In this document: positions 8,250 to 25,911 of the stretch, one piece after another
How positions within the stretch are numbered: the first letter of the stretch is position 1
How the letters are laid out: every line of letters begins with the position of its first letter
DNA from: a virus
Taxonomy: Duplodnaviria; Heunggongvirae; Uroviricota; Caudoviricetes
Direction: 5' to 3' (one strand)
Virus record (IMG/VR): IMGVR_UViG_3300003310_000099
Span: 298,295 to 362,294 of that record
Length of the DNA stretch: 64,000 bases
Made by a program: the position numbers and the translations under genes
Notes under the pieces: model-generated
The model's input: only the letters and a program-made list of their open reading frames with translations
What the model was told of the DNA's origin: nothing
Databases searched by the model: none

Positions 8250-8558
8250 ATGGTCAAGAACGAACTGGTGCATGTTTGCGGCAACGAGACTTCCGAGGGT
8301 TTCAAGGTGCTTCCGCTGGTGGTTCGCAAGCCGCGTAAGGCCAAGGTGGTGAAGGCCAAGGGCAAGGCGGGTCGTCCGCGAGTGTACAACGGTACGCAAC
8401 GTCGCATCGTGGCGGCGGCGCTGAAGAAGCACGGTCTGACCAAGGGCTTGGAGTTCTTGGCCAAGGAACGCAAGCTCAAGGTGTCGATGACCTTGGCGAT
8501 TGCGGTTGCCAAGGAACACAAGATCGAGTTTCAGCGGGGCCGTCCCAAGGCCGCGTAA
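8250..8558 (+). CDS. basic protein with AT-hook-like GRPR/RGRPK motifs; putative DNA-binding
   Basis: Lys/Arg-rich, ends PKAA, followed by hairpin. Confidence 0.7.
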   Translation: MVKNELVHVCGNETSEGFKVLPLVVRKPRKAKVVKAKGKAGRPRVYNGTQRRIVAAALKKHGLTKGLEFLAKERKLKVSMTLAIAVAKEHKIEFQRGRPKAA

Positions 8559-8623
8559 GGGCTACAAGGGGGGACTGCAACCCCCTTGCCTGCGAGATTT
8601 CTAAATTCTAATTGGGGATTGCC

Positions 8624-8785
8624 ATGAACCGTGAACGCATGATTGACACGATTTGCCTTGACCTGGAGGGTTGGCTTGAGCGTGATCGTCAAGAGTTCCT
8701 GAATCATGTGGAGGAACTGGAGCGGGCTTATCTGAAAACGAAGTCCGACAAGGAACTGACGGAGATTTACGAGGCAAGCGTATAG
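8624..8785 (+). CDS. hypothetical protein
   Basis: 53-aa ORF with GGGG RBS ending at next motif. Confidence 0.55.
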   Translation: MNRERMIDTICLDLEGWLERDRQEFLNHVEELERAYLKTKSDKELTEIYEASV

Positions 8786-8837
8786 CTTAGCTGTACCGAG
8801 TGTGATGTAAGATTTCTTTTTCTCAAAGGGGATTTGA

Positions 8838-9080
8838 ATGGCTCGTCAGGAAACGACTGCTGGTTTCGAGGTTCTGCCGTTGCCGACGTATCGCACTTCT
8901 GCCAAGGAGTTTGCGGAGAAGGCCAAGGTCGATTATGCCGTGGCTCAGGGTTTCATCAAGTTCCTGGTCAGTCAGGGCATTGCGAAGGAAGTGGAGAAGC
9001 GTAAGGTTGTCGGTGCCAAGGGCAAGCCGACGAATGTGTATGAATTGCCGACTGAACTGCGGCTCAAGTTGGCGGCGTAA
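8838..9080 (+). CDS. winged-helix-like DNA-binding protein
   Basis: helix + LVSQGIAKEV + GKPTNVYEL wing; ends KLAA. Confidence 0.7.
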   Translation: MARQETTAGFEVLPLPTYRTSAKEFAEKAKVDYAVAQGFIKFLVSQGIAKEVEKRKVVGAKGKPTNVYELPTELRLKLAA

Positions 9081-9116
9081 GCCAAACAGGGGGGAACAAA
9101 CTGTTCCCCCCTTGAG

Positions 9117-9200
9117 GGCCGCGTGGTGGAATTGGCATACACAAGGGACTTAAAATCCCTCGCCTTTATCGGCTTATGGGTTCGAGTCCCATCGCGGCTA
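9117..9200 (+). tRNA. tRNA-Leu(TAA)
   Basis: Canonical cloverleaf: GTGGAATTGGCATACAC D-arm, AGGGA-CTTAAAA-TCCCT, long variable arm, GGTTCGAGTCC; no encoded CCA. Confidence 0.95.
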
Positions 9201-9239
9201 TTGCTTAGCTGTACTGAGTTCTTAAACGGAGGAATTTCG

Positions 9240-9428
9240 ATGTACGTTCTGAATGGGTGGAATCGGCGTGATGGTGAACTGGAGCAGAATTTCACCAAGA
9301 ATGAGGGTGAGACTGCTTTGGCGATTGCCCGAATTTGGCTGAGTAAGGGTTGGCGTCCTGTCTTGAAGTCTTACGTTGGCGGGATTCATCTCGTTCCTCT
9401 TTCTGTTCCGCTGCGTAAGGCTGCGTAG
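9240..9428 (+). CDS. hypothetical protein
   Basis: GGAGG RBS; ends RKAA. Confidence 0.65.
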   Translation: MYVLNGWNRRDGELEQNFTKNEGETALAIARIWLSKGWRPVLKSYVGGIHLVPLSVPLRKAA

Positions 9429-9483
9429 TGCCAGGGTAATCGCCCACCCTGCATAACCTTAGCTGTACCAAGGAGAGCATGAC

Positions 9484-9678
9484 ATGGAACCGCTGCCGAT
9501 TGGGACTGAGTATGATGGCAACGTAATTGTCGAAGTGGTCGATATGGACCCTTCTGACACTTATCAACCTTTCAGCTATCTCTTGGACAATGGTGAGATT
9601 GTTTGGATTCCTCAAGGGGAGGAACCGCAGTATATTATCACCGAACAAGGCAGGAATGTATTGCGTGCCAATCTGTAA
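9484..9678 (+). CDS. hypothetical protein
   Basis: ORF between two motif copies. Confidence 0.6.
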   Translation: MEPLPIGTEYDGNVIVEVVDMDPSDTYQPFSYLLDNGEIVWIPQGEEPQYIITEQGRNVLRANL

Positions 9679-9837
9679 CCTTAGCTGTACCAAGGAGCTT
9701 GTGATGTGGTGGAAAGTTTTCGCTGACGGCTCCGAGTACGACATTGTTTTCGCCGCAAGTGCCGAAGCAGCGATTGCTTACGCCAAGTGGAAGCATGGGG
9801 AAGCTGTTTGGACTGCACGTCTCTATTAGGAGCAGCA

Positions 9838-10071
9838 ATGCCGAAGATTGATTTCTGTTTTAGTGGTTGGGTGCGTGGCGTCAACGTCACGGAAGCGACG
9901 GACGATGAGGGCAACACGGTTGACGTATCCAAGATGGATGCAGGCGACCTTGCCAGGGACTTGGAGAATGGCAAGCTATTCATTTCCCTTGGCGATTATC
10001 TCTATCAGAATCGCAAAGGTGAAATTGAACTGACCGACTTCGAGGCGACTGACTATCCTCATTTACCTTAG
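9838..10071 (+). CDS. hypothetical protein
   Basis: AGGAG RBS; stop inside motif. Confidence 0.6.
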   Translation: MPKIDFCFSGWVRGVNVTEATDDEGNTVDVSKMDAGDLARDLENGKLFISLGDYLYQNRKGEIELTDFEATDYPHLP

Positions 10072-10207
10072 CTGTACCTAGTTCATTGCCCAATCATTCA
10101 GGAGTCAGTCATGGGTAATCCTGTTGTGACGCCAATGGACATTGCGTGGAACGGTGAAATCATGGAAGATGTTTACGGGTCGATGGAAGAGTATTGGGAG
10201 GAACAAG

Positions 10208-10408
10208 ATGACGTGGCGCAGCCTGATGCGGGAACTCAGTCGAATGAGCGACAACAAGCTGGACGGGCAGGCGATGATCTACCGCCCTTCTAGGGAGTTT
10301 GGGGCGGGTGAAGCCGAAGTTATTGCAATCAAAAGTCTTACGACCATTGACGGCGATATGGCTGAGGAATTCGATTTGGTGGATGGTGATCCAATTGGAT
10401 TAGCTTAG
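10208..10408 (+). CDS. hypothetical protein
   Basis: GAGG RBS; stop inside motif. Confidence 0.55.
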   Translation: MTWRSLMRELSRMSDNKLDGQAMIYRPSREFGAGEAEVIAIKSLTTIDGDMAEEFDLVDGDPIGLA

Positions 10409-10424
10409 CTGTACCAAGGTGGAT

Positions 10425-10688
10425 ATGAAAACACGCAAGTTCAAAATCACTGGAATGCCTTCTGAGCGTGAGTACAATGCTATGCCATTTGGCAGGCAGC
10501 TTGAGTTTGCTCAAAAGCTCAAGGACTTCAAGGCAACGGCCAAGTCAACGTGGCTGAGTCAGAAGCGACAGACGTACCAAAAGGCAATCAAGGAAGCGAT
10601 TGCGTTGCGAGACGTAAAGGAATACTACTGCGAGTTTTACAACGAACCGCAGTGCAAGGACGACGTTTTCGAGTTCTGGTATAAATAA
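10425..10688 (+). CDS. hypothetical protein (leaderless)
   Basis: ATG at motif+21. Confidence 0.65.
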   Translation: MKTRKFKITGMPSEREYNAMPFGRQLEFAQKLKDFKATAKSTWLSQKRQTYQKAIKEAIALRDVKEYYCEFYNEPQCKDDVFEFWYK

Positions 10689-10758
10689 CAAAGGAAACTA
10701 ACTATTAAGACCATACGAGCGCCGCCCGCAAGGGTATGAATTTACCACTTAATTAGAG

Positions 10759-10793
10759 GCAAGAGGGGAAAGTAAACCCTCTTGCTTTTTTTG
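10759..10793 (+). terminator. Rho-independent terminator
   Basis: GCAAGAGGG/CCCTCTTGC stem + T-run. Confidence 0.8.
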
Positions 10794-10864
10794 TCTTTTT
10801 AGAATAAGATTAGCTTAGCTGTACCGAGTGAGTTGTGTCAAGGATACAATTCATGGAGAGAAAC

Positions 10865-11254
10865 ATGACTCAACGCGAAGCGGTTTTTCAGGCGTGTGAG
10901 GATTTGGATGTGCGTTCGAGCGTGCCGACTTTGTTGAATGCGGCTGAGCGGATTTACGGTGGGGACATTACCTATCAGGCAGCGGTGAGTTATCGGTGCG
11001 AGTATCGCAAGCTGCACGGTATCAAGACGGACTGCCGCAAGAACGGGAAGAAGGGCCAATGGCGTCGGGACATGAAGAATGACCATACTGCTTCGTTGAA
11101 GCAGGTGAAGCGGCTGCATCACTTCCTCAAGTTGAAGCGGCCATCGGTGTCAAGTCTGGTGGCTTTGATGGGGGATGGCAGTGAAATGTTCCATAGCGTG
11201 GAACAGATCAAGAACGCGATTGCGGAATTCAACGAACTGCGAAAGGTTGCTTAA
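10865..11254 (+). CDS. hypothetical protein, paralogous to 15080..15547
   Basis: GGAG RBS; shared YxCxxRK...DCR motif. Confidence 0.65.
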   Translation: MTQREAVFQACEDLDVRSSVPTLLNAAERIYGGDITYQAAVSYRCEYRKLHGIKTDCRKNGKKGQWRRDMKNDHTASLKQVKRLHHFLKLKRPSVSSLVALMGDGSEMFHSVEQIKNAIAEFNELRKVA

Positions 11255-11291
11255 CCTTACAGGGTTCGCCCCCTGCTTTGGAGAATTTAAG

Positions 11292-12200
11292 ATGTGCAGT
11301 GTTAAGGGATGCGATAAGCCATGTGCTACAAATCGCAAGATGTGCGAACAGCATTTGGAAATATATCGTAATCGCTCAAAAAAAGTAATACAACAATATA
11401 TTGCAGATGGAAAATGCAGATATTGTCCTCAATTAAGGTTGCCTAATTTCCAAGTATGTGAAATGCACCTTTTGAAAAATAGGGCAAAATGTAAACTTCG
11501 TGGTGAAAAGCTAAGGCAAGAAGTTTTTGACCACTATGGAAAGCAATGTGTCTGTTGCGGCGAGTCAGAAATTAAGTTCTTGACCATCGACCATATCGGG
11601 AACGATGGCAGCACTCATCGTAAGAAGGAAAAGGTTGGGTCGGGAGGCAGTTTCTATGCTTGGTTAAAAAGAAATAATTTTCCTTCTGGCTTTCAAGTTC
11701 TTTGCTGGAATTGCAACGCGGCCAAGGGGCTATACGGTTCTTGCCCACATAACTTAGCTGTACCGAGTAAACATATGAACAATAAAATTCTCGTCATCAT
11801 GCAGGGGCACAGTGGTTCAGGTAAGTCTACCTTGGCGAAACAAATCGCCAAGGTAATTGACGCAGAAATCTTCTCCACGGATGAACTTTTCATTGTAAAC
11901 GGAGTTTATAAATTTGACCCTTCAAAATTAGGATTCTTCCACAAGAAGAACCTTGATAATTGCATTGCAGCAATGAAGAGGGGCGTGAATGTTGTGTGCG
12001 ACAACACAAACATTCGTCAATGGGAAGCTAAAGGGTATGTGGAAGCTGCCCTTGATTTGGGTTTTGAGGTTAAATTCATTCGAGCAACTGGAAACTTTCA
12101 GAACGTGCATGGCGTGCCGAATGACAAGGTTGAGCAGATGCGTGCGCGGCTGGAAGACTTGACGGTGGAAAGTGTCATGGCGAGCAAGAAGCCTTTTTAG
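11292..12200 (+). CDS. HNH endonuclease in frame with an AAA_33/N4BP2-like P-loop polynucleotide kinase (kinase has own start at 11775)
   Basis: CVCCG...LTIDHI...QVLCWNCNAAK; then GHSGSGKST, STD, DNTN, NVHGVP. Confidence 0.85.
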   Translation: MCSVKGCDKPCATNRKMCEQHLEIYRNRSKKVIQQYIADGKCRYCPQLRLPNFQVCEMHLLKNRAKCKLRGEKLRQEVFDHYGKQCVCCGESEIKFLTIDHIGNDGSTHRKKEKVGSGGSFYAWLKRNNFPSGFQVLCWNCNAAKGLYGSCPHNLAVPSKHMNNKILVIMQGHSGSGKSTLAKQIAKVIDAEIFSTDELFIVNGVYKFDPSKLGFFHKKNLDNCIAAMKRGVNVVCDNTNIRQWEAKGYVEAALDLGFEVKFIRATGNFQNVHGVPNDKVEQMRARLEDLTVESVMASKKPF

Positions 12201-12248
12201 CTTAGCTGTACCAAGTCAGTTGTGAGATTACTCTAACTGGAGCGACCG

Positions 12249-12587
12249 ATGAACGACCTGGAAAATGACGGGAACGAAAAAGACCTGTTGGATGAACTCA
12301 TGGAAGAGACGCCGACCAAGGGCGCGCTACTGCAATTCGATGACCTGGAAGCTGGTCAGTTGATTTGCGTCCACAGTATCAAGGGCAGCAATGATGCTGC
12401 TCCGATCATGGGGCAGGCGATGACGGTCAACGCCGTTTGCTTCCCGTTCTTCGTGGCGTCACTTTACGCGAATGGGGAAGTGCTGACGCTGGACGTGCGT
12501 TTCCTCAATCTCATGAAGTGCAACAAGGAATTCGCGGAAGCTCAGAAGAAGGCTGCAATGGCCCATAAGCGTGGGCCACAAGCCTAA
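12249..12587 (+). CDS. hypothetical protein
   Basis: GGAG RBS after motif. Confidence 0.7.
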   Translation: MNDLENDGNEKDLLDELMEETPTKGALLQFDDLEAGQLICVHSIKGSNDAAPIMGQAMTVNAVCFPFFVASLYANGEVLTLDVRFLNLMKCNKEFAEAQKKAAMAHKRGPQA

Positions 12588-12700
12588 ACCACATAGGCAT
12601 TTGTGTCCTGTGACCTTCATGGTCTATGGCACAATGTAAGACCTATTCTTGCTTATACCTTAGCTGTACTGAGTTGAGTGTAACTAAACTTGGGGGAGCT

Positions 12701-12844
12701 ATGGAAACGAACTTCTGCGATTACTGTCATCAGCCGTGTGGCCAACGTCGCTTCTGCGATGAAGTGTGCTATGAGGAGTATGAGAACGAGTACGCTGCAT
12801 TCATGGAATGCGTGCGGGAAGAGAATCACGACACTGACGATTGA
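12701..12844 (+). CDS. small zinc-finger-like protein (CxxC...FC...C)
   Basis: GGGGAG RBS. Confidence 0.55.
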   Translation: METNFCDYCHQPCGQRRFCDEVCYEEYENEYAAFMECVREENHDTDD

Positions 12845-12850
12845 ATCATG

Positions 12851-12982
12851 GTCCCTGTAGTGTAATGGTAGCACGGGTTTAACCGTTTTCTAATGGTGGC
12901 TATAGACGCCATGTAGAACGGCATAGTGCGCACTATGTTGCGAGGTGAAAACCAAGTGTGGCGTCGAAACCCACCAGGGGCA
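12851..12982 (+). ncRNA. tRNA-like RNA with a 68-nt structured region in place of the anticodon loop
   Basis: Acceptor GTCCCTG/CAGGGGC-A, D-arm GTGT-AATGGTA-GCAC, anticodon stem GGTTT/AAACC, degenerate T-arm. Confidence 0.7.
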
Positions 12983-13058
12983 GCCTATACCTTAGCTGTA
13001 CCAAGTCCATTGTAATCGCCCGCGTGTTGCTCCGAGCGAATCGGAGCCTATTTGGAGA

Positions 13059-13319
13059 ATGGCCATGCGGTACGCTGATCGTTTTTGTCAGTACACGGAA
13101 TCGTTCGAGAACGGTCACGTCTACATTTTCACTGGTCCGTGTGTGGTCACGGGCAAGCCTGTTACGGTCAAAGTGCCCGCCGAGGGGCTGTTTGCCTATC
13201 GGTCTGGTGCCCACATTCAGGACGCCTTCCCCACCCTATCCTCTGATGACCGTGAATTCCTCATGAGTGGGATAAGCAAGGAAGCGTGGGATGAGACTTT
13301 CAGTGGGGAAGAGGAGTAA
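13059..13319 (+). CDS. conserved hypothetical phage protein
   Basis: IQDAFPTLSSDDREFLMSGI motif recurrent in phage ORFs. Confidence 0.7.
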   Translation: MAMRYADRFCQYTESFENGHVYIFTGPCVVTGKPVTVKVPAEGLFAYRSGAHIQDAFPTLSSDDREFLMSGISKEAWDETFSGEEE

Positions 13320-13364
13320 TCCTTAGCTGTACCAAGTTCGTTAACTAAACTCTGGAGAACAGCT

Positions 13365-13592
13365 ATGTCAGTGATCGAAAAGATTCAGGCTGATTTCGCG
13401 GCTGCGGGCTATCAGTGGCAGGAACACATCTACAACGATGGTTTGCCTGGATGTAGCATCATGTTCACCAAGGACAAGAATCCTCACTATTTCGCTGAAC
13501 ACCCATGCGGTGATTTTGGGTGGGGCCGCTTTGAACGCTGGTGGGCATGGGCACAGGCTCATGAATGGTTGCTGAAAAGGCAAGCAGCATAG
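13365..13592 (+). CDS. hypothetical protein
   Basis: GGAG RBS; ends RQAA. Confidence 0.65.
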   Translation: MSVIEKIQADFAAAGYQWQEHIYNDGLPGCSIMFTKDKNPHYFAEHPCGDFGWGRFERWWAWAQAHEWLLKRQAA

Positions 13593-13637
13593 CTTAGCTG
13601 TACCAAGTCTTTTGTAATCACCTTTACTGGAGCAATC

Positions 13638-14081
13638 ATGTATCAGCAGTATCCGAGGGACTTGGTTGTTAGCACGCCGTTGGGTTCGGTCAAGGTGGCT
13701 ATCACTGATGATAAGCACGCCTACGTTGAAAGCAATGACGTGCTTATCATCAGTGGCAAGCCGATTCGGGTTACGCTGCACATTTTCCTACGGGATGGGC
13801 AGTGGACCGACAAGAACGAGAACGGGCGCAGCACGATCTACGCCAAAAAGCCCGACGTGTGGACCAATGATGAGGCAACGCCACTCCAAAAGGAAAAGGC
13901 AATCAAGGCAGTGGTGCCGACTGTGGGCAACTTCATCAATGCCAATGCCCATTTGCTGAAACAGGCACAAGCGGCACACGTTGCTAACGCTGTGGAAACG
14001 CTGGAAGGCCGCATTGCCGACAAGCGTAAGGAAATCGAAGAAATGGAAAAGGAAATCGCTGACCTGAAGGCGACTCTGTAA
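13638..14081 (+). CDS. hypothetical protein with C-terminal coiled coil
   Basis: GGAG RBS, cassette between motifs. Confidence 0.75.
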   Translation: MYQQYPRDLVVSTPLGSVKVAITDDKHAYVESNDVLIISGKPIRVTLHIFLRDGQWTDKNENGRSTIYAKKPDVWTNDEATPLQKEKAIKAVVPTVGNFINANAHLLKQAQAAHVANAVETLEGRIADKRKEIEEMEKEIADLKATL

Positions 14082-14129
14082 TAGCTTAGCTGTACTGAGT
14101 ACAGTGTAACCTTACTACGGAGAACGAAA

Positions 14130-14333
14130 ATGCAGGTCATCGACACTCCCGAAGGAATTCGTGCCTATCGTCTGTTGGCTTTGCGGGCCGCTTTGGGACT
14201 GGAAGTCAAGGGGCTGAAAGGGCGAGTGAACGCCTACGCCACAATCAAAAAGGAATTCGGCCTCAAGGGAACCAAGGCAAAGGTCTATGCCTTGTATGAG
14301 GCCAAGTTGCAGGAAATGGGGATTCTTAGCTGA
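14130..14333 (+). CDS. hypothetical phage protein
   Basis: GGAG RBS. Confidence 0.7.
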   Translation: MQVIDTPEGIRAYRLLALRAALGLEVKGLKGRVNAYATIKKEFGLKGTKAKVYALYEAKLQEMGILS

Positions 14334-14462
14334 GCGGAGGGCAGAAATCCTCCCAAGACGGGGAACCATAGGGTAAGAGCGGTGCTGGCTTAGGCCAAGA
14401 ACCTCTATGGTTCCCCGTAATTAGCTTAGCTGTACCAAGTAAAGCATAACCCTGGAGAAACC

Positions 14463-14648
14463 ATGTTGGAAAGCTGGATTCTGGCTCGTTACGATCTGAA
14501 TTACGAGATTGCTGTTGATGAGGGTCATCAGGAAGAGGCAAGCCGCATTGCTTGGGAGTGGACTGAGAAAGAGTACACTCGGATGTTTCATCGGGTCAAG
14601 GGCCAGAAACAGGCGCAGCAGCAGGAAGAAATCGCCCTCCGCGATTAG
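14463..14648 (+). CDS. hypothetical protein
   Basis: GGAG RBS. Confidence 0.6.
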   Translation: MLESWILARYDLNYEIAVDEGHQEEASRIAWEWTEKEYTRMFHRVKGQKQAQQQEEIALRD

Positions 14649-14688
14649 CTTAGCTGTACCAAGTTCATTGTAACCTACCTTTTGGAGA

Positions 14689-15003
14689 ATGGTCATGGAT
14701 ACGCTGGAACTTGCTTCGGCCCCCGTTGGTGAAGAGTGCGCTCAACTCGGTAGTCCCGACTATTACGAGCGGGCAAAGAAGGAATGCAACGCTTTCATTG
14801 GCCAACTTCGCCGTAAGTTCGGCAAAGAGCCAGTCGGCGCAAGGCTTTACGTCAAGGCCAACGCACATGACTTCGGGAGCTATTACGAAGTGGCGTGCAA
14901 ATTTGACGGAAGCAATCAAGAGGCAATCGAGTACGCTTTCGATCTTGAGGCCAATCTGCCCGAAAATTGGGACAAACAGGCCAAGAGCGAACTTGGGTTG
15001 TAG
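14689..15003 (+). CDS. conserved hypothetical phage protein
   Basis: PxxExCAQLG...HDFGSYYEV...LPENWD. Confidence 0.75.
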   Translation: MVMDTLELASAPVGEECAQLGSPDYYERAKKECNAFIGQLRRKFGKEPVGARLYVKANAHDFGSYYEVACKFDGSNQEAIEYAFDLEANLPENWDKQAKSELGL

Positions 15004-15079
15004 GGTTCAGGGTTCGCCCACCCTGCTTAACCTTAGCTGTACTGAGTTGGTTAAATCCCAAGGCTCGGAGTGTCTGGCG

Positions 15080-15547
15080 ATGATTAACACGGCGGAAGAA
15101 ATGATTCGGGTAGTTCTCGATGAAATCGGCCTTCAAAGCAGCTTAGCTGAGATTCGGAACCGAGTGGTCCAATCTCTGAACGAAATTAGAAAGAAATCGG
15201 CAACGGAAAGGATATTGCGTGAAATGGCTAAAGTTTGGGAGAGTTTTGCAAGAGGAGAACAGACATATGAGGCATGTCTGAAAAAAATCGAGCTATGGGC
15301 TGCGTTTATTTGGCAGGCCAATGACGACTCTGGGTATCTGTATGAGGGTTGCACATTAAACCCCGACCACATTTGGCATGAGTGGTGTGCCTGGATTTAT
15401 GTCGCAAATCCAGAAGGGTATAGTGTTGGTTATCCGAGTCTGGCATATTGTTGCCAGATCAGGAAGAAGGTGCAGAGGGAACGTGGCGAGGAATACGACT
15501 GCCGTACCTATGAAGGTCAACCCGACCGCAATATGATTCTGGTCTGA
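15080..15547 (+). CDS. hypothetical protein
   Basis: GGAG RBS after motif 15032. Confidence 0.65.
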   Translation: MINTAEEMIRVVLDEIGLQSSLAEIRNRVVQSLNEIRKKSATERILREMAKVWESFARGEQTYEACLKKIELWAAFIWQANDDSGYLYEGCTLNPDHIWHEWCAWIYVANPEGYSVGYPSLAYCCQIRKKVQRERGEEYDCRTYEGQPDRNMILV

Positions 15548-15600
15548 CCAACAGGGTTCGCCCACCCTGCTTTACAAACCTTAGCTGTACCGAGTACATC

Positions 15601-16695
15601 ATGAACACTCAAGAATATCTGCGTAACGGCAAGACGTTGGAAGACTTGACCTCTGAGTTTCACATCAACGTCACGAAGCACGATACGTTGCCGTTGGTCA
15701 TCCTGAACTACGATCAGATTGAGTCGCCTAAGACTCATCCGATTGTGCGGGAATGCCGTGGTTTGGTTCTCAACTCTGAGGACTATTCGCTGGTGGCGCG
15801 GGCTTTCGGACGGTTTTTCAATTGGGGTGAAGTGGCGGATGAGATGCCGTTGTTCGATTGGGATTCGTGCGTAGCTCACGAAAAGGTTGACGGTTCGCTG
15901 GTTCTCATCTACTACTTCGATGGACGTTGGCACGCGAATACGCGAGGCTCGTTCGCTGGTTGGCCGCTGTTCAACGATGAATATGTGGCGAAGTATTACG
16001 GTTTGCCGACGACGTTCAAGTGGTCCGATGGTTTCCTCAAGGCTTTAGGTGTCAATTCCCTTGAAGAGTTGAACCTTGACAAGTCGTTGACGTATGTATG
16101 CGAGTTTTGTTCGCTCTGGAACAAGGTAGTTCGGACGTACAATGAACCGTGTATGTATATGTTGACGCGGTTTGCGGGCATGGAGGAAATCGGGCCGACG
16201 TATCATCCGAACTTCAAGACGCTGGGGGCTTATCCGTTGAAGTCTGTACAGGATGTGCAGTCGTTTGTGATGGATCATCCCGAAGCGACTTTCGAGGGTG
16301 TAGTCGTCAAGGATGATGCGCACCGACGTTGGAAGTTGAAGAATCCGCGATACGTTGCGTTGCACCACATGAAGGGGAACGGTACGGAAATCTTCAAGCC
16401 TAAGAACTTGATGCCGTACATCCTCAAGAATGAGGGCGACGAATTGCTGACGTACTTCCCCGAAGTCAAGGATGTGTTTGCGGAGTACAAGGGCAAGGTT
16501 GACGATGCCTACAACGTCCTAGAAACGCTCTGGAAGGCGAATAAGGATATTCCCGTCCAAAAGGATTTTGCGTTGTCTATCGTGGGCAAGACGCCGTTTA
16601 CTTCAGTTCTGTTCAATCTCCGCAAGCAAGGGGGAACGTTGCGGGATGAATGGATGAAGCACGGGGATGGCATTCTGAAAGTGTTGTTCAAGTAG
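15601..16695 (+). CDS. RNA ligase, T4 Rnl1-like
   Basis: ECRGLVL, RFFNWGE, motif I EKVDGSL, motif IV EGVVV, motif V KLKNPRY; leaderless start. Confidence 0.9.
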   Translation: MNTQEYLRNGKTLEDLTSEFHINVTKHDTLPLVILNYDQIESPKTHPIVRECRGLVLNSEDYSLVARAFGRFFNWGEVADEMPLFDWDSCVAHEKVDGSLVLIYYFDGRWHANTRGSFAGWPLFNDEYVAKYYGLPTTFKWSDGFLKALGVNSLEELNLDKSLTYVCEFCSLWNKVVRTYNEPCMYMLTRFAGMEEIGPTYHPNFKTLGAYPLKSVQDVQSFVMDHPEATFEGVVVKDDAHRRWKLKNPRYVALHHMKGNGTEIFKPKNLMPYILKNEGDELLTYFPEVKDVFAEYKGKVDDAYNVLETLWKANKDIPVQKDFALSIVGKTPFTSVLFNLRKQGGTLRDEWMKHGDGILKVLFK

Positions 16696-17706: not shown

Positions 17707-17751
17707 ACCTTAGCTGTACCTAGTTAATTGTAACCTAACTGGAGCCAACAC

Positions 17752-18428: not shown

Positions 18429-18667
18429 TGCCTTCAAGTCTATAGATAAACTCTGTAGACTTTATGGCACTAACTTCTACATTCAAGTTTCCGAGTGTTC
18501 CATTGGCATCTACAACGTGCCAGATGATGACTTCCATATCTTCACTTGGAGCGAAAATCGCTATGTTCTGACCAACATACAAGACTATATCCCCAATTGG
18601 CTATCCAACAAAGTGGGGATATAGCCTAGCTGTACCAAGTCCATTGTAATTCAAATCACTTTGGAGA

Positions 18668-18925
18668 ATGGTCATGACTGACAGCGTTGCCAAGATTGCC
18701 CGTGTCAACCCGACCTTGGCCAACAAGATCAACGCACAATTCACCTTCCTCACCAATGAGGACATTGCCGAAGTCGAGAAAATCGACCGCATGATGATGG
18801 TGCTGGTGCGTTGCGGCAATGGCCGATTCGTCTGCCCCGTTCAGAACGCACTACACTTCTGCAACATCATCGACAAGGAAGGCACCGACTACGTTCGGGA
18901 TATGAGCTTCCCAAGTAATGGGTAG
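18668..18925 (+). CDS. hypothetical protein
   Basis: GGAG RBS. Confidence 0.65.
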   Translation: MVMTDSVAKIARVNPTLANKINAQFTFLTNEDIAEVEKIDRMMMVLVRCGNGRFVCPVQNALHFCNIIDKEGTDYVRDMSFPSNG

Positions 18926-18996
18926 AACAGGGTTCGCCCACCCTGCTTAAACCTTAGCTGTACTGAGTGTAATGTAACTCATTCAGGAGGACTTCA

Positions 18997-19212
18997 ATGG
19001 CTCAGTGCTGCGGCGAAGAAATGTACAAGGACTGCAACGGCCAACCGCGTTGTGAACAGTGCCAACCGCCGTGTCCGTGTTGCTATGATGGCGGCATGGA
19101 TGACCAAGAGGAAGAAGAAGAATTTTGGCTGACGTGTCTGGATGAGATGGATGCACGATACCGTAAAGGAACGAAAAATGGAAACTCCGCTCCAGAAGCT
19201 GCCATTCGATGA
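18997..19212 (+). CDS. Cys-rich acidic small protein
   Basis: AGGAGG RBS. Confidence 0.6.
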   Translation: MAQCCGEEMYKDCNGQPRCEQCQPPCPCCYDGGMDDQEEEEEFWLTCLDEMDARYRKGTKNGNSAPEAAIR

Positions 19213-19398
19213 AGCCCTGTACCAGACATTCAATTTCGTTAGCAAAATGTCTGAGTCAATGGATGCTACGTTTACTGATGATGAACGGGCAGCTGTCAAG
19301 ATCACTTCACGCATACTCGCCCAAATGGTTGTGGAAATGCACGACGATACCTTAGCTGTACCTAGTAAGTTGTAACCCAACCCCAAACGGAGAGTGCC

Positions 19399-19530
19399 AT
19401 GTACGAAGTCATCCACAAGGGTCGCAGCTTGTTCCGCAACGTCAGCATCGAGCGTTGCCGTCAGTTCATCGCACGGCACAATCTCAGTGGGGCTATCATT
19501 CAGCCCCTCAGTCAAATGTTGGCTGCTTAA
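19399..19530 (+). CDS. 43-aa protein ending QMLAA
   Basis: GGAG RBS; not in ORF track (<60 aa). Confidence 0.6.
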   Translation: MYEVIHKGRSLFRNVSIERCRQFIARHNLSGAIIQPLSQMLAA

Positions 19531-19576
19531 CTCCAGGGTTCGCCCCCCCTGCGCCACATCTATTAAGGAGCCAAAC

Positions 19577-19759
19577 ATGTATGAGGGTGAAGCCGATTAC
19601 GTTCCCTACTTCTGGGAACGCAAGACACCAGTGCAGACCGTTGGCAAGGTGCGTATCTACCTTGTCCAAGACGAAGCTGCACAATTCGATGATCTGATGG
19701 GACGAAGCCAACTCAACTTGGCCGAATGTTCCAACGGCAAGGTCATGGAAATAGCTTAG
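19577..19759 (+). CDS. hypothetical protein
   Basis: AAGGAG RBS. Confidence 0.6.
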   Translation: MYEGEADYVPYFWERKTPVQTVGKVRIYLVQDEAAQFDDLMGRSQLNLAECSNGKVMEIA

Positions 19760-19799
19760 CTGTACCTAGTTAATTGTAACCTTACTCTGGAGCAAACAC

Positions 19800-19991
19800 A
19801 TGCAGGTACATCTTTACGGCAAGCCTCTGGTTGAGGGGAAGACTGTGACGCTGGACCATACGGTTCAGAAGTTCGAGATTCTGATTCGCTCCATGAGTGG
19901 GGTTCATGCACAACGCTTGAAAGACCTCATTCAGAAGCAGTTTGAGGTCGTCAAGATCAAGGAAGTGGACAGCATTTCTTACGTCATCTAA
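19800..19991 (+). CDS. hypothetical protein
   Basis: GGAG RBS. Confidence 0.6.
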   Translation: MQVHLYGKPLVEGKTVTLDHTVQKFEILIRSMSGVHAQRLKDLIQKQFEVVKIKEVDSISYVI

Positions 19992-20260
19992 GGGGCAGGG
20001 TCGCCCACCCTGCTTAAACCTTACGGAGTCCTACCATGAAGATCATTGCTGCCTACAACAAGTACACCAAGGAAGCCTTGACCAACGAACAGCGGGAAGC
20101 TGACATGGAGGCACTACTTGAGGCACATGAAGAAGAAGTGAAAACCAACCCCACATGGAAGTATTTCGGGGGGCATCATCGAGCTAGGCGACCACGAATA
20201 CCAAGTGTGCTAAACCTTAGCTGTACTGAGTACAGTGTAACCCCAACACTTGGAGCAAAC

Positions 20261-20626
20261 ATGGACAAGCATTTGCAAGAGCGTATCGACCGTTTCGTGC
20301 AGGCCGCTGATCGGTGCGTGGAAACCTACTGGACGAACAGTGGCTACACCCACATGTCACCGCCCAAACATCGCGCCAACGAGATTAGCGACAAATGGGT
20401 GCGAGTTGTGACGGTCGAAGAACGCAATGGCGTTTGGCAGGATTCGAGCGTCTACGCCTTCATCTGCCTCAAGGACTATTCGACCAAGGCTTTAGGTCAA
20501 CTCAAGAAGGGCGACATTCACAAACCAGCGACCTACAAGGCCGCTGCGAAGCACGCAAGGGGCAACGTGTTCGACAACGATTTTGAGAAGTGCCTGACGC
20601 CGTGGGGTATCGTCTACTTGAAGTAA
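20261..20626 (+). CDS. conserved hypothetical phage protein
   Basis: SVYAFI...GDIHKPATYKAAAKHARGNV motif. Confidence 0.75.
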   Translation: MDKHLQERIDRFVQAADRCVETYWTNSGYTHMSPPKHRANEISDKWVRVVTVEERNGVWQDSSVYAFICLKDYSTKALGQLKKGDIHKPATYKAAAKHARGNVFDNDFEKCLTPWGIVYLK

Positions 20627-20675
20627 GGGGCAGGGTCGCCCACCCTGCTTAAACCTTAGCTGTACCGAGTAGAGT

Positions 20676-20954
20676 ATGAACAAACAAGAATACGCTGAGT
20701 ATGAGGCACGGGTAGCCGAGTTCTTCAGCCACGGTTTGGCTAACTTGTCAACCAAGTCGGATTGCCATGAACCGTTCTTTTCGTGGCGTCCGTGTCAGTG
20801 CTGCGGGACACACTTAGGCGGCAATCGCTATGAGTGTGACGGGTACAATGAGAAGACAAAGGAAGTCGAAGAGTACGACAACATTTGCGAAGACTGCGTA
20901 TATTACGCAGAATACGGGCAGCTTGACGATACCACTATGGCCAATCTGGAGTAA
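20676..20954 (+). CDS. Cys-containing hypothetical protein (leaderless)
   Basis: FSWRPCQCCG...GNRY; ATG at motif+21. Confidence 0.7.
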   Translation: MNKQEYAEYEARVAEFFSHGLANLSTKSDCHEPFFSWRPCQCCGTHLGGNRYECDGYNEKTKEVEEYDNICEDCVYYAEYGQLDDTTMANLE

Positions 20955-21360
20955 CCATGAAACTCAGCGAAGCTATCCACAAGCTGCAATATACGCTCAA
21001 TCTCCACGGCGATAAGGAAATGAAACAGTGGAAGTATAGCGACGGCAAGGTACAGTCTGTGCCCGTCAAGCTGGAAGTAGCCGAAAACCCCGAAGATGAT
21101 ACCATCGGCGTCATCCTCAGTGCCGAATAACCTTAGCTGTACCGAGTAAAGCATGAACACATCACTTGAAAAGAAGATCAATCATAAGCGGCGTTTGCGT
21201 GTGCTGCGTGAGAGACTTCGCAAGCTGCTGCTCCAATACTACGTTCATTCGGACGCGGGCAAGCTGGAGAAGCATGTTCGTGTGATGAACAAGCTCCGCA
21301 AGGCAATCAGAAAGCTTAGCTGTACCAAGTAGGTTGTAATCACCCTTACTGGAGTCAGCC

Positions 21361-21618
21361 ATGCAAGACCACGTTCTCGACAACTGCCTCATTCATCAGA
21401 AAGATGCCATTATCGACCTCATCGACAGTGGCAAGCACGATGAGGCGATAACGCTGCTCAAGTTCGTCAAGGAACTGTGGGAAGCCGCGAGCTACGACTA
21501 CAAGTACAGAGAACTCAAGGAGCGCGGCGTCAGAGCGGCGGATAACCGAGAGAACTGCCGCCACTGGAAGCACGTCCAGTCACTCACGGCCATTCAGAAC
21601 AAGTATCGTTCACTGTAA
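21361..21618 (+). CDS. hypothetical protein
   Basis: GGAG RBS. Confidence 0.65.
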   Translation: MQDHVLDNCLIHQKDAIIDLIDSGKHDEAITLLKFVKELWEAASYDYKYRELKERGVRAADNRENCRHWKHVQSLTAIQNKYRSL

Positions 21619-21706
21619 GGGGTGGATAGGGGAGAAAGCCAATCCCCTTATCCTGCTGATACCTTAGCTGTACCTAGTGCAGTATAACCCTTACTGGAGA
21701 AGACAC

Positions 21707-21883
21707 ATGAAGGTTTGCCAGAAGTGCGGGGATGAGATTGGCACCAAGGACGGGGACAACTATTGTGGCAAGTGCCACAAGAAGAAGGATGCGGCCAAGA
21801 GACGGAAGGAACGGGAAGACGTGTTGCGTAGTTGTGGGTTGGTGAAGGTGCGTGGGGCAATGGGTGGAACCTATTGGGAATAA
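21707..21883 (+). CDS. small zinc-finger protein
   Basis: CQKC...CGKC; ends VRGAMGGTYWE. Confidence 0.65.
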   Translation: MKVCQKCGDEIGTKDGDNYCGKCHKKKDAAKRRKEREDVLRSCGLVKVRGAMGGTYWE

Positions 21884-21960
21884 CCCAATAGGTCGCCCAA
21901 CCCAGCATAGCTTAGCTGTACCAAGTGCATTGTGACAGTCAAACCCCTGGAGTCAGTGCA

Positions 21961-22317
21961 ATGCGGTATTTCATCAAGTTGGCCAAGAAGAACGACCGTG
22001 GCGAACCCGTCAACACGGGTTGGTATGAAGAGGTGGATGAGTACACGTTCAAGAACGCCAAGTATGCGCTCAACGATTGCGGCGATGGTCCGCGTTACAC
22101 GAACGACGCTGTGATGGTGGACGGCGATGAGGTCACTGCACGGTTGGTCGCAGCCCCAATACGGGACTTGGCCATTCTGACGCGATACTTTCAGGCGTCG
22201 GAACCGAACAAGGTGGAAGGCGGTTTCGTCCGCGAGCAACCGAGTATCAAGTTCAACATTCGCGGCAAGATCAAGCTGCGTGAGAAGGACGGTAGCATCT
22301 GGAGCAAAGCAGCGTAA
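21961..22317 (+). CDS. hypothetical protein
   Basis: GGAG RBS; ends SKAA. Confidence 0.7.
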   Translation: MRYFIKLAKKNDRGEPVNTGWYEEVDEYTFKNAKYALNDCGDGPRYTNDAVMVDGDEVTARLVAAPIRDLAILTRYFQASEPNKVEGGFVREQPSIKFNIRGKIKLREKDGSIWSKAA

Positions 22318-22366
22318 ACCAACAGGGTCGCCCACCCTGCTTTACCTTAGCTGTACGGAGTGGAGT

Positions 22367-22543
22367 ATGAGCTACCTTCGTCACATGCGGACTACTGCTG
22401 AATGCCGCGCTGAAAGCGGGGCCGAAGAACAAGGCGTCAAGGTGCGTGCGAAGCGTAATCGCCGCAATATCCCCAACGCTTGGGACGACGTGCCTCATGC
22501 CCGTCGCCACAAGTGCGACCGCCACAAGGATCATCGTCGCTAA
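22367..22543 (+). CDS. small basic protein (leaderless)
   Basis: IPNAWDD motif; ATG at motif+21. Confidence 0.65.
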   Translation: MSYLRHMRTTAECRAESGAEEQGVKVRAKRNRRNIPNAWDDVPHARRHKCDRHKDHRR

Positions 22544-22970
22544 CGGGCGGGTGTACGGTCTGGCGGCGGGGGCCGTCAGCGTAAGGTAGGCAAACCTACA
22601 CCGTACACCTGCCCAAAAGTACAAAGCTTAGCTGTACCTAGTATAGTGTAATCACCCTTACTGGAGACAGCCATGCACGCTACCACCGAACGCAAGAAGT
22701 CCAACAAGAACGATTTCACCGTCACCACGACGGTCAAGGATCGCGCCATTCACATCCAGACCATCATTATGATGGCAGCAAGGTCCAACCGCGAACCCGA
22801 TAAGCGCCGCAAGCTGCGGGAACGCGACGACCGCCGCATGAGGGACTGATGAGCGAACAAGAAATTGCCGACTGGCTCGCAGAACTACGCGAGTCAGTCG
22901 GCACCAGACCCCAAGGATAGCTTAGCTGTACCAAGTAGGTTGTAACCAACACCCTTACTGGAGAGTACAC

Positions 22971-23354
22971 ATGACCGCTACCGTGTCCCTCAGCTGCGAA
23001 CGCTACTTCCCCGAAACCAACAAGCGGGGCAAGAATGGCAAGCTGCAACGCATTTGCATCGACGTGCGCAAGATGCAGATTCGCGGCGACTTCATCACCA
23101 CGACGGGCTTTGAGGTCAACTACCTCAAGCGGGGCGGCGAATTCCGCTTCTACGTCAAGAGCATCGTCAAGCCTGTCAAGTCGATATGGCAGGAATTGAA
23201 CACCCGTCCGCAACCCATTATCCCGAAGTGGGAGCGGGAAGGCAACTACAGTCGGGATGAATTCGTGGCGTGGCTCAAGGCACGCCGTATCCAAAACGCC
23301 GAAAGCCTTGTCATCGCTCTGATGACGATGCCCCCCGAAAACTTGGCAGCGTAG
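22971..23354 (+). CDS. hypothetical protein
   Basis: GGAG RBS; ends NLAA. Confidence 0.7.
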   Translation: MTATVSLSCERYFPETNKRGKNGKLQRICIDVRKMQIRGDFITTTGFEVNYLKRGGEFRFYVKSIVKPVKSIWQELNTRPQPIIPKWEREGNYSRDEFVAWLKARRIQNAESLVIALMTMPPENLAA

Positions 23355-23615
23355 CCAACAGGGTCGCCCACCCTGCATAGCCCATAGCTTAGCTGTACCA
23401 AGTAGAGTGTAACCAACACTCAGGAGTCAGCACATGCGGGCCAAACATCGTAACGACCACAATCATGGCAAGAGCGGTTGGGTCGGTGGCAATCCACGTT
23501 ATGGCCGTAAACGTGGCTTCCGCAAGTCCGATCAACCCAAAGACAAAGCCGCCTGGAAACGCGAAGTCAAGTAAGGGGTGAGACAGGGGACTGCCAACCC
23601 TGTCTTTTTTCGTTT

Positions 23616-23856
23616 CAACCTAAACTCAGTACAGCTAAGCTTTTACACCTCCATACTGTACAAAGTGCTTCACCTCTCAAATGCGATTAAATGCGTTTTA
23701 AGCCACTCTGAGGTCAAGGTGACTCTCGACCCACTTAACCCATTTGAATCGCTTCTAGGGCCATCCTAGCGTCAGCAAATGGCATCCGCGAATCCAATCC
23801 CGAATGTTCAAAGACCGCACCGAATCCTACCCTAATTAAGCTTAGCTGTACCGAGT
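23616..23856. repeat. ~240-bp non-coding element, copy 1, bounded by outward-facing motif copies
   Basis: Shares long blocks with 25945..26186. Confidence 0.85.
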
Positions 23857-23894
23857 ATATTGTTCTAAACCACCCCATACTGGAGAACACGAAC

Positions 23895-24095
23895 ATGCGT
23901 TGCGAAGATGCCCCGTGCTGCGGTTGCTGCCCGTCCTACTACGATCACGACGCCTACGATGACATGGAGCAGTACGACGACCGCGACGACGCACGGTACG
24001 ACGACGTTGAGGAAGACCACATCCTTGAGCAGCAGGAGCTTGAGGACTTCGAGCAGGCCGACGAATACTTCGGCCACTACAACGATTGGGAGTAG
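23895..24095 (+). CDS. very acidic small protein with CEDAPCCGCC start
   Basis: GGAG RBS; D/E/Y-rich. Confidence 0.7.
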   Translation: MRCEDAPCCGCCPSYYDHDAYDDMEQYDDRDDARYDDVEEDHILEQQELEDFEQADEYFGHYNDWE

Positions 24096-24179
24096 GGGGA
24101 AGGGGTCGCCCACCCCTTTATAATAAGTTTACCTTAGCTGTACCTAGTCCAGTGTAACGCTTCTTACTGGAGTGCAGCA

Positions 24180-24665
24180 ATGCTGACCGTCACCGAACTC
24201 CGCGACAATCTGATGGCCCTGAAGGGCGCAGCGATCATCACGATTGAGGCCGAGACGGAGCCTCAGATGCGCAAGACGGATAACCCCTACGTTGGCACCG
24301 TCAAGGTGTCAAGCGTCAACGGCGTCATCAACTGGATTTACGAGATTGCCGTCAACAACCAACGGCTGCGGGAAGACAAGGAAGCAGACTTCGTTGCCTT
24401 CCCCCGTAAGTGGGGCAAACGCATCAAGGGCACCCCACTGGTGGAACACAAAGGCAAGTTCTACCTTGAAATGAAGGTGCAGAGCGCCAAAGCCAAGTAC
24501 GTTCACGGCGATGCCGAGATTGCCGTAAGTGAGCTAATCCCCTACTTCTACGAACGGGGCAAGTCTCGTCAAGGCGTCGATAAGGAAGTCATCCTACGGG
24601 ACTACGCTCTTGAGAACATCAAGGGCATTCGCTGGGGTGGCGAACTCATCAAGGTAGGGGCATGA
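24180..24665 (+). CDS. conserved hypothetical phage protein
   Basis: MRKTDNPY...YEIAVNNQRLRE...WG...HKGKFYL. Confidence 0.8.
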   Translation: MLTVTELRDNLMALKGAAIITIEAETEPQMRKTDNPYVGTVKVSSVNGVINWIYEIAVNNQRLREDKEADFVAFPRKWGKRIKGTPLVEHKGKFYLEMKVQSAKAKYVHGDAEIAVSELIPYFYERGKSRQGVDKEVILRDYALENIKGIRWGGELIKVGA

Positions 24666-24727
24666 TGCCCTAATTAGGATAGCTTAGCTGTACCTAGTAC
24701 AGTGTTCCTCAACCCCTGGAGACGCAC

Positions 24728-24901
24728 ATGACTCTACACTGCATCCTCTGCGGCGAAGAAGCGGCCTTGACGCTGAATCTGCAAGATGGGGAAACCGTGT
24801 CTTGTCCCGAATGCGGGAACGACTTCACGACCGCCGACGTGAAGGAACGCATCGAAGAGTGGACGCAGGCGTTAGCCTGGATCAACAACATGCCCAAGTA
24901 A
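24728..24901 (+). CDS. small zinc-ribbon protein
   Basis: CILC...CPEC; GGAG RBS. Confidence 0.65.
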   Translation: MTLHCILCGEEAALTLNLQDGETVSCPECGNDFTTADVKERIEEWTQALAWINNMPK

Positions 24902-24980
24902 TGGGCATGGTCGCCCTAATTAGGATAGCTTAGCTGTACCTAGTAGAGTGTAATCACCACCACCTTACTGGAGAGTACAC

Positions 24981-25346
24981 ATGGGCGTCCGTCTCTACCC
25001 GAACACGACCAACGCGGCGAAGCTGGAGAAGTTGGCTGGTGTCCCCGAAGGGACGCACAAGCGGATGGAAGACATGGCAAAGCGGCACGCGGAGGAACGC
25101 GCTGCGGCCACCAACTGGAACGAGTACGAAGACGGCTACCGCCAATGGAAGGAACGGGACAACGACGGTCCTATTGGCGACTTGGACGCCTTCCTTACCT
25201 TCGGGTGGGGCAAGTTCCGCCCAATCGACGGCATCGGGGAGGATTACGCGGGCAACGAGAGCGACCCACAACGGGCCGCGAAGCTGCTCCGATACAACGG
25301 TATCGGGGTGGACGTGAGCCTAACGGAAGGCGTCCACTGGTGCTAG
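24981..25346 (+). CDS. hypothetical protein
   Basis: GGAG RBS, followed by terminator. Confidence 0.7.
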   Translation: MGVRLYPNTTNAAKLEKLAGVPEGTHKRMEDMAKRHAEERAAATNWNEYEDGYRQWKERDNDGPIGDLDAFLTFGWGKFRPIDGIGEDYAGNESDPQRAAKLLRYNGIGVDVSLTEGVHWC

Positions 25347-25665
25347 TGGACAGGGGGCGAAAGCCCCCTTTTCTTTTATACAACCATTACCTTAGCTGTA
25401 CCTAGTGGAGTGTCCCCCCTTCACTACTGGAGCCGCACGATGACGCTGAAACAGCAGCTGGAAAAGTTCGATGCGCAGGCCGACACCTACGCCAAGGCCA
25501 CGAAGGAGCCTTGGGAGTGCGAGAGCTACGCTGAATGGGTGGCTTCGCTGCCCGAAGAAGAACAACCTTATGAAAATGAGTAACACGGGCATCGCCCGCC
25601 CTAATTAGGATAGCTTAGCTGTACCTAGTAAGTTGTTCCAACCAACCCCATACGGAGACACGCAC

Positions 25666-25911
25666 ATGGCCACCGTCATCGCTTCCAACCTCACCGCCGT
25701 TGTCGTCTACCGCGTCGAGAAGACGCTGGGGCCGAATGGCCGCGTCAAGCAGCTGACCGACGTGACGATCAAGGCGGGGCCGCTCACGGTCGCCACCAAG
25801 ACGCTCTGGGGCCGCTACAGTCAGAGCAAGGCTCTGGTGGAGTTCAAGCGGAACCCCAAGGGCTGGACGGTGCTGGATGCCGCCGCGTCCAAGTTGCCGA
25901 TTGCGGCCTAA
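25666..25911 (+). CDS. hypothetical protein
   Basis: GGAG RBS; ends PIAA; terminator 25914-25940. Confidence 0.7.
   Translation: MATVIASNLTAVVVYRVEKTLGPNGRVKQLTDVTIKAGPLTVATKTLWGRYSQSKALVEFKRNPKGWTVLDAAASKLPIAA

Follow-up and report, generated by a model that had tools for sequence, protein, structure and literature searches.

Introduction

The tag of the ssrA (transfer-messenger RNA, tmRNA) system and the native ClpX degrons known as 'C-motif 1' both end in Ala-Ala (Flynn et al. 2001, 2003, as cited in PMC7652416). Ala-Ala-COO- is the main determinant for recognition by ClpXP, and in the ssrA tag it is contacted by exactly Y153, V154, T199, V202, R228 and H230 of ClpX; in human ClpX, which is without T199 and H230, ssrA substrates are not degraded (PMC7652416). 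An unbiased screen in E. coli found that 91% of the top 100 C-terminal degrons end in Ala-Ala and depend on ClpXP (PMC10862746). Here we analyse a window of 64,000 nucleotides, bases 298,295-362,294 of the 373,404-bp, 41% GC (guanine plus cytosine) virus record IMGVR_UViG_3300003310_000099 (Caudoviricetes; G000 below). The window contains an island of small gene cassettes that is richer in GC than the rest of the genome, and eight of the small proteins encoded there end in Ala-Ala. Like the ssrA tag and C-motif 1, these proteins carry a terminal Ala-Ala-COO- on a predicted flexible tail, often with Leu, Lys or Arg just upstream, and a ClpX with the six contact residues is available in the phage. 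Unlike the ssrA tag, their tails are genome-encoded on native phage proteins rather than added by trans-translation, the residue at -3 is variable (K, L, P, A, E, Q), and there is no SspB-binding part.

Tags of this kind have been described on phage proteins in mycobacteriophage integration-dependent immunity, in which Int and the viral form of the repressor carry ssrA-like C-terminal tags (Broussard et al. 2013, as described in PMC9635641). There, proteolysis, for example by ClpXP, sets the levels of these two lysogeny-switch proteins as a form of regulation, and the gene loses its tag when the phage integrates at the attP within it. The island proteins also bear native ssrA-like tags; however, here one in five proteins of an accessory island bears such a tag, the phage has its own ClpX, no Int/attP logic was seen, and neither Pfam nor PHROGs identified an integrase or a repressor among the eight. 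ClpX, ClpP and ClpS genes are present in jumbo phages, without known substrates (Atu_ph07, PMC6102473; survey, PMC7824862). This huge phage likewise has genes for a full-length ClpX and for a member of the ClpP family. The reports on those phages put forward neither substrates nor recognition signals for their Clp proteins, whereas the present genome displays a set of candidate substrates.

Phage gene expression is mostly described as transcription, and programmed protein removal has been described for few proteins, such as Int and Rep of mycobacteriophages, the repressor of Mu, and lambda O. Lambda O and MuA are phage regulatory or replication proteins controlled by host ClpX, the signal being N-terminal in lambda O and a basic C-terminal tail, RRKKAI, in MuA; unlike the island proteins, they belong to no multi-family Ala-Ala set. 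In its layout the island resembles the plastic regions of T4-like phages that are made up of PeSL cassettes, in which small accessory open reading frames (ORFs) are each flanked by a promoter of the phage and a hairpin, and we know of no report of a shared C-terminal signal in PeSL cassettes. Our search of the literature found no description of a comparable multi-family Ala-Ala-tagged phage set. The novelty lies in scale and in pairing: the signal is carried by a fifth of the accessory island, across many unrelated families, in a clade with its own ClpX and mini-tmRNA.

Results

Terminal Ala-Ala is enriched among the island proteins

Each cassette of the island runs from a promoter motif, CTTAGCTGTACC, through a GGAG ribosome site or an immediate ATG to a small ORF, often followed by a hairpin. 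One ORF per cassette was curated from the geometry of promoter and ribosome site, giving 54 ORFs. The preliminary description of this DNA, which was drawn from its letters alone, had named eight Ala-Ala termini and a further terminus, RKVA; all of these are present on the plus strand with the endings it gave (Table 1). Its C-termini were right, whereas for three of the genes the ORFs of the program-made list are longer than the likely genes. The ORF listed at 9123-9428, for instance, overlaps a tRNA-Leu gene. The C-termini are unaffected by this.

Ala-Ala ends 8 of the 54 curated ORFs against an expected 0.43 at 8.9% Ala (binomial P 1e-8), and the probability is 4e-7 when the internal Ala-Ala dipeptide frequency of 1.26% is used instead. 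Set against amino-acid composition in this way, the signal is stronger than the preliminary description had reported. The excess of Ala is confined to positions -1 (12/54) and -2 (11/54), with none at -3 to -6, and Ala-Ala is the only C-terminal dipeptide that occurs more than twice. Among control ORFs of the island, 2 of 104 non-called ORFs on the plus strand and 3 of 160 on the minus strand end in Ala-Ala, and GCNGCN stands ahead of any stop triplet in 1-2% of cases. The eight genes use eight different pairs of Ala codons and differ in the bases after the stop. Because the off-frame and antisense controls are flat and both codons and flanks differ, the excess is not a nucleotide artefact, and a shared junction, a hairpin or a promoter flank as its cause is ruled out on the same grounds. 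A single expanded paralog family is ruled out as well, as weak similarity was seen only between the proteins at 8250-8558 and 8838-9080.

These results bear on the explanation that the endings are a functionless by-product of composition, of paralogy, or of the hairpin or promoter next to the gene. The island is indeed richer than the rest of the genome in GC and in Ala (8-9% vs 6%), and one weakly similar pair exists. However, composition predicts 0.4 cases and not 8, off-frame and antisense ORFs reach only 2%, the remaining proteins are unrelated, and the endings are kept across synonymous changes and across insertions and deletions, as described below. Chance and composition are effectively refuted, and we give this explanation hardly any credence.

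It is also most improbable, in our judgement, that Ala-Ala before the stop is selected for clean termination or against stalling or read-through. Such a translational role would suit a phage with a UAG suppressor tRNA, a Pth-like gene and a mini-tmRNA, in which TAG is frequent among the island stops (19/54) and a tRNA with anticodon CTA is encoded elsewhere in the genome. However, stop-codon choice is not linked to the endings, since TAA:TAG is 5:3 in the Ala-Ala genes, the same proportion as the 27:19 of the island; no preference for Ala-Ala is seen in the highly expressed structural genes that lie outside the island; and the Ala excess occurs only at -1 and -2, and jointly. All eight genes are preceded by a copy of CTTAGCTGTACC and a GGAG-type ribosome site, being led by a Shine-Dalgarno sequence and not leaderless, in numbers too small to test an association. 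Read-through of TAG in the RKAA, RQAA and NLAA genes would bury the Ala-Ala tail.

Searches of Pfam and PHROGs gave nothing above threshold for the eight proteins or for two others tested that end in Ala after a different residue; the 22971-23354 protein has a sub-threshold match to the Pfam DIX family (17.5 bits vs a cut-off of 22.2).

Table 1. Coordinates of the features discussed. Positions are those of the window unless prefixed by a sequence handle; the fourth column gives the endings of orthologs in relatives
Feature	Position	Strand	Endings in relatives	Remarks
102-residue protein, ends RGRPKAA	8250..8558	+		curated ORF
80-residue protein, ends KLAA	8838..9080	+	KLAA, KKAA, AEAA, PVAA; one QVA	curated ORF
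62-residue protein, ends RKAA	9240..9428	+	RKAA, RAAA, RRAA; Ala-Ala kept in all four genomes	curated ORF
75-residue protein, ends RQAA	13365..13592	+	QKAA in G002; Ala-Ala lost in G001 (DASC)	TAG stop within the upstream flank of the next promoter
43-residue protein, ends MLAA	19399..19530	+	MLAA in G001, different Ala codons	curated ORF
118-residue protein, ends SKAA	21961..22317	+	SKAA in L015; KSVA in G001	curated ORF
127-residue protein, ends ENLAA	22971..23354	+	KAAA, KIAA	curated ORF
81-residue protein, ends PIAA	25666..25911	+	LPAA, ALAA, CAAA in three other genomes	curated ORF
129-residue protein, ends RKVA	10865..11254	+	RKAA, QKAA	curated ORF
ClpX, 434 residues	G000:155108-156412; L022:1120-2424			143 kb upstream of the window
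ClpP-like serine protease, 210 residues	31129..31761	-		5 kb beyond the island; PF00574 at 73 bits
GC-rich cassette island	4249..26920	+		~50% GC vs 41% genome-wide; ~54 small cassettes
Mini-tmRNA gene	6788..6927	+		Rfam RF00023, 49.8 bits; inside the island
272-residue protein, ends KKAA	G000:105756-106574	-	Ala-Ala kept in G001	
529-residue protein, ends EFAA	G000:159616-161205		Ala-Ala kept in G001	
RuvB-like AAA+ protein, ends KEAA	G000:198457-199638		Ala-Ala kept in G001	
tRNA with anticodon CTA	G000:167507-167581			
tRNA-Leu	9117-9200			inside the island
tRNA-like gene, 94 nt	7566-7659			ARAGORN; abnormal two-base anticodon; between two promoter copies
327-residue protein (phrog_1221)	4644-5627			unknown function
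T4 Rnl1-like RNA ligase (phrog_562)	15601-16695			in the island
Inverted promoter-motif copies	23604-23643; 25933-25972			each followed by a 139-nt repeat
139-nt repeat	23663-23801; 25993-26131			copies 85% identical
CCA-adding tRNA nucleotidyltransferase	34348-35865	-		near the island
1052-residue protein	45820-48978			LAGLIDADG homing-endonuclease segment

The endings are conserved at the amino-acid level and anchored to the C-terminus

The conservation of Ala-Ala in homologs, which the preliminary description had left as a check, was found to be high in both families for which database homologs were collected. The 8250-8558 protein has 66 of them, down to 48% identity, of which 64 end in Ala-Ala and 2 in Val-Ala. 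Their tails include RGRPAA, RGRPKAA, RGRPKIAA, RGRPVAA and RGRPKQKKAA, so that the spacing from RGRP to the final Ala-Ala varies and Ala-Ala is always last. All 12 database homologs of the 22971-23354 protein end in Ala-Ala as well (ENLAA, ENLEAA, ENLAAA, ENMAA). The fixation of Ala-Ala to the terminus despite insertions is the signature of a signal that is read with a free C-terminus.

Ortholog endings were obtained by tblastn of all 54 cassette proteins against the loci of relatives (Table 1). The orthologs of the 10865-11254 protein end in RKAA or QKAA, and this family is therefore of the Ala-Ala type in spite of its RKVA ending here. Families without Ala-Ala retain their own differing ends, for example KKPF, FWYK and WEK. 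Among five ortholog pairs between G000 and its relative G001 that keep Ala-Ala, four show synonymous changes of Ala codons. The Ala-Ala termini are under purifying selection at the amino-acid level and are anchored to the C-terminus.

In the 8250 family, two AT-hook-like GRP motifs flank a three-helix core, and the 8250-8558 product is probably a small DNA-binding protein. A Foldseek search with its model gave no significant match, only weak ones to three-helix DNA-binding domains. The label 'transposase' that some members of the family carry at JGI is unsupported by their sequence. A scan of genome contigs with this family found no match, and hence no clue to the host.

The enrichment recurs in related phages

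Two related genomes, G001 (390 kb) and G002 (341 kb, 68% complete), were fetched whole, and a third, LR756511.1 (595 kb), in part; each has a GC-rich island, at 293-317 kb in G001 and 1-20 kb in LR756511.1. Genome-wide ORFs were called with a simple two-model caller, which recovers 49 of the 54 curated island stops. In G000 it finds Ala-Ala ends in 8 of 56 island ORFs against 6 of ~650 elsewhere. The corresponding figures are 11/64 and 6/641 in G001, and 13/52 and 0/510 in G002; in LR756511.1, Ala-Ala ends 7 of ~50 island ORFs and none of the 54 ORFs in 35 kb of flanking sequence. Pooled over G000, G001 and G002, the ending is found in 32 of 172 island ORFs and in 12 of 1801 others (odds ratio 34, Fisher P 6e-26), and Ala is the last residue of 30% of island ORFs vs 6.8% elsewhere.

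Clustering of the island ORFs from all four genomes, 228 in number, gave 152 families, of which 22 have a member ending in Ala-Ala. Four families are found in all four genomes and end in Ala-Ala in each, and for several of the Ala-Ala ORFs found in G001 there is no homolog in G000. In the 32 pooled island tails, position -3 is K in 8, L in 8, P in 4 and A in 4, and position -4 is K in 9 and R in 6.

The trait belongs to the island and not to the promoter class

As the preliminary description had noted, none of the ORFs called between 27 and 64 kb of the window ends in Ala-Ala. It had also labelled the tagged proteins 'early', which was only assumed. The nine-base core of the promoter motif, TAGCTGTAC, has 111 copies on the plus strand of the genome and 3 on the minus strand, 57 of the plus-strand copies being in the island. 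About 54 more promoter copies lie upstream of the island (genome 32-302 kb, mostly 244-302 kb), and in the stretch from 244 to 302 kb, which is not GC-rich, none of ~200 small ORFs ends in Ala-Ala. Because promoter-bearing genes outside the island are without the ending, the trait goes with the GC-rich island rather than with this class of promoter, and the label needs to be qualified.

Outside the island, three larger proteins end in Ala-Ala in G000 and also in G001 (Table 1). The contrast between an island of ~50% GC and a genome of 41% is common to all four phages, and the promoter takes a different form in each of them (CTTAGCTGTACC, CTTAGTTGTACC, TTGCAATTGTACCA and TAAAGCTGTACT).

The phage encodes a ClpX with intact ssrA-contact residues

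A search of G000 for protease families found a ClpX gene upstream of the window. Its product scores above the cut-offs of two equivalog models, NF003745 (561 bits, cut-off 359) and TIGR00382 (535 bits, cut-off 371), and has the Pfam domains zf-C4_ClpX, AAA_2 and ClpB_D2-small, with a 12-residue insertion within the zinc finger. It was aligned to the full-length, 424-residue chain 8e91_A, which we take to be E. coli ClpX; the GYVG, ITRDV, RKH and IGF-loop motifs are kept, and all six ssrA-contact residues of the E. coli protein (Y153, V154, T199, V202, R228 and H230) are conserved. The ClpX proteins of G001 and LR756511.1 are 85% and 72% identical to it with the same motifs, and all three end in EAA. 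No copy of clpX was seen in the 68%-complete record of G002.

The peptidase is less clear. A ClpP-like serine protease lies close to the island and is 64-81% identical in G001-G003. It reaches 52-68 bits against ClpP cut-offs of 249-309 (TIGR00493/NF001368) and 52 bits against a cut-off of 120 in the model for the ClpP-related head maturation protease. Its Ser and His align with the catalytic residues of ClpP, and Glu aligns with the position of the Asp. Judged by these scores and alignments, it may be either a partner of the phage ClpX or a prohead protease. No S77/S78 prohead protease was found in the phage, although the S77 control gave no match anywhere, and family searches of the genome found no S41 tail-specific protease, SspB or ClpS.

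The phage ClpX bears on two further explanations. In the first, Ala-Ala-COO- would be a non-degradative handle by which ClpX or another phage or host factor unfolds, remodels, localises or loads the proteins. The conservation of the phage ClpX in three genomes beside an uncertain partner peptidase fits such a role, as do the EAA endings of ClpX and of the RuvB-like ATPase. Precedents are the remodelling of MuA by ClpX and the assembly or translocase roles proposed for jumbo-phage ClpX; chaperone or translocase roles have been proposed for jumbo-phage ClpX and ClpA alike (PMC7824862). However, the ClpP-docking IGF loop of the phage protein is intact, and proteolysis is the outcome for all Ala-Ala-COO- tags that have been studied well (PMC7652416, PMC10862746). 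We regard a handle of this kind as unlikely.

In the second, the tagged proteins would be decoys that saturate host ClpXP in bulk, with the mini-tmRNA interfering with the same pathway, so that other phage proteins are protected or the turnover of host ssrA-tagged proteins is blocked. Many Ala-Ala ORFs do stand in one block behind strong-looking promoter copies, and the mini-tmRNA gene is in the same island. Against this, one abundant tagged protein would be enough, whereas at least 22 unrelated families keep their own fold together with Ala-Ala over 30-50% divergence, and the phage adds ClpX capacity rather than removing it. Collective titration of host ClpXP was offered in the preliminary description as an alternative to rapid turnover; our results lend it no specific support, and we consider it quite unlikely.

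The tails are predicted to be accessible

Two of the proteins were modelled with AlphaFold2 (AF2). In the 8250-8558 protein the core helices at residues 48-89 have a confidence score (pLDDT, predicted local distance difference test) of ~90, and the tail at residues 90-102 is non-helical, with scores of ~75 at residues 91-100 and ~57 at the last two. The last six residues of the 22971-23354 protein score below 50, in a model that is weak as a whole (mean 59). The models suggest that the Ala-Ala tails are flexible, accessible ends.

Other features of the island and its surroundings

GC hairpins close many cassettes, an example being CAGGGTTCGCCCACCCTGC. The possible tag frame of the mini-tmRNA reads ASIQVA-stop, and that of the G002 copy, which is 95% identical, ASTQVA-stop; by blastn there was no copy in G001, and LR756511.1 was matched by the 3' end only. 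The island also contains an RNA ligase gene, a tRNA-Leu gene and a tRNA-like gene. A CCA-adding tRNA nucleotidyltransferase gene lies nearby, and 56 tRNA genes were counted in the whole genome. Two copies of the promoter motif are inverted, each with a repeat behind it (Table 1).

A second conserved small hydrophobic C-terminus was observed in the protein at 4644-5627, in which a final Ala-Val is kept in five relatives; the ends in this family are MAMAV, GVAV, GLAV, ALAV and GIAV. In the 1052-residue protein, the LAGLIDADG segment spans residues 557-735 and may represent either an intein or an endonuclease that has been inserted. A megablast search of the island and the late region against cultured phages returned one uncultured huge phage and, apart from it, only a match to a tRNA.

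Discussion

We consider it somewhat probable that the terminal Ala-Ala of the island proteins is a built-in ssrA-like C-terminal degron that is read by the host ClpX, the phage ClpX or both. The terminal anchoring, the presence of the ending on unrelated proteins with flexible tails, the conservation at the amino-acid level and a ClpX with an intact pocket make a degron the simplest mechanism. On this basis, 15-25% of the small accessory proteins of the island would carry predicted degrons in this clade of huge phages. A ClpX-type unfoldase would recognise Ala-Ala-COO- and feed the tagged proteins to host ClpP or possibly to the phage ClpP-like protein, and the tagged proteins would be short-lived, so that their levels would closely track transcription. 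We infer ClpX as the reader, degradation as the outcome of recognition, and timing as the purpose. The degron interpretation of the preliminary description is strengthened by the selection on amino acids, the C-terminal anchoring and a clade ClpX with the contact residues; its 'early' label needs to be qualified, and its titration variant gained no specific support.

The upstream residues suggest that the tails would differ in strength. In the E. coli screen, where positions 2 and 3 of the five-residue tag correspond to -4 and -3, Leu at -3 and Leu, Ala or Arg at -4 were favourable, and tags were weakened when Pro, Gly, His or a short polar residue stood at -3 (PMC10862746). KLAA, MLAA and NLAA fit the favourable pattern, whereas RPAA and LEAA are predicted to be weak. 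As read from these residues, tails of the RPAA or LEAA type may be weak or tuned degrons.

Several points weigh against a degron. First, terminal Ala-Ala was necessary and not sufficient in the E. coli screen (PMC10862746), which makes the strength of the island tails uncertain; at the third-last position they often have K, P, E or Q in place of L, and several tails end in PAA, EAA or QAA. Second, Ala-Ala is no general device of early genes. Third, some of the Ala-Ala proteins outside the island are large enzymes, ClpX among them, and what these would gain from rapid turnover is not obvious. Fourth, the ClpP-like gene may simply encode the prohead protease, as no other prohead protease family was found. 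Finally, the four genomes are relatives, and the replicates are not fully independent.

A degron could also be part of a self-contained programme of proteolysis, a tentative proposal that we think doubtful as a whole. The phage ClpX, working with host ClpP or the phage ClpP-like protein, would come on after the island genes and clear the Ala-Ala set; the mini-tmRNA would reduce competition from host ssrA-tagged proteins, the EAA ending of ClpX would provide feedback, and the whole would act as an infection clock.

A degron of this kind would suggest what the clpX genes of jumbo phages, so far unexplained, might do. It would come with a ready list of candidate ClpX substrates, and it would provide a simple hypothesis for how huge phages time or limit the proteins with which they take over the host. 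Regional enrichment of C-terminal Ala-Ala is also a cheap genomic marker, which can be scanned for across viral catalogues. If the proposed programme is real, these phages would carry a virus-encoded module of degron, unfoldase and rescue RNA that acts as an infection clock.

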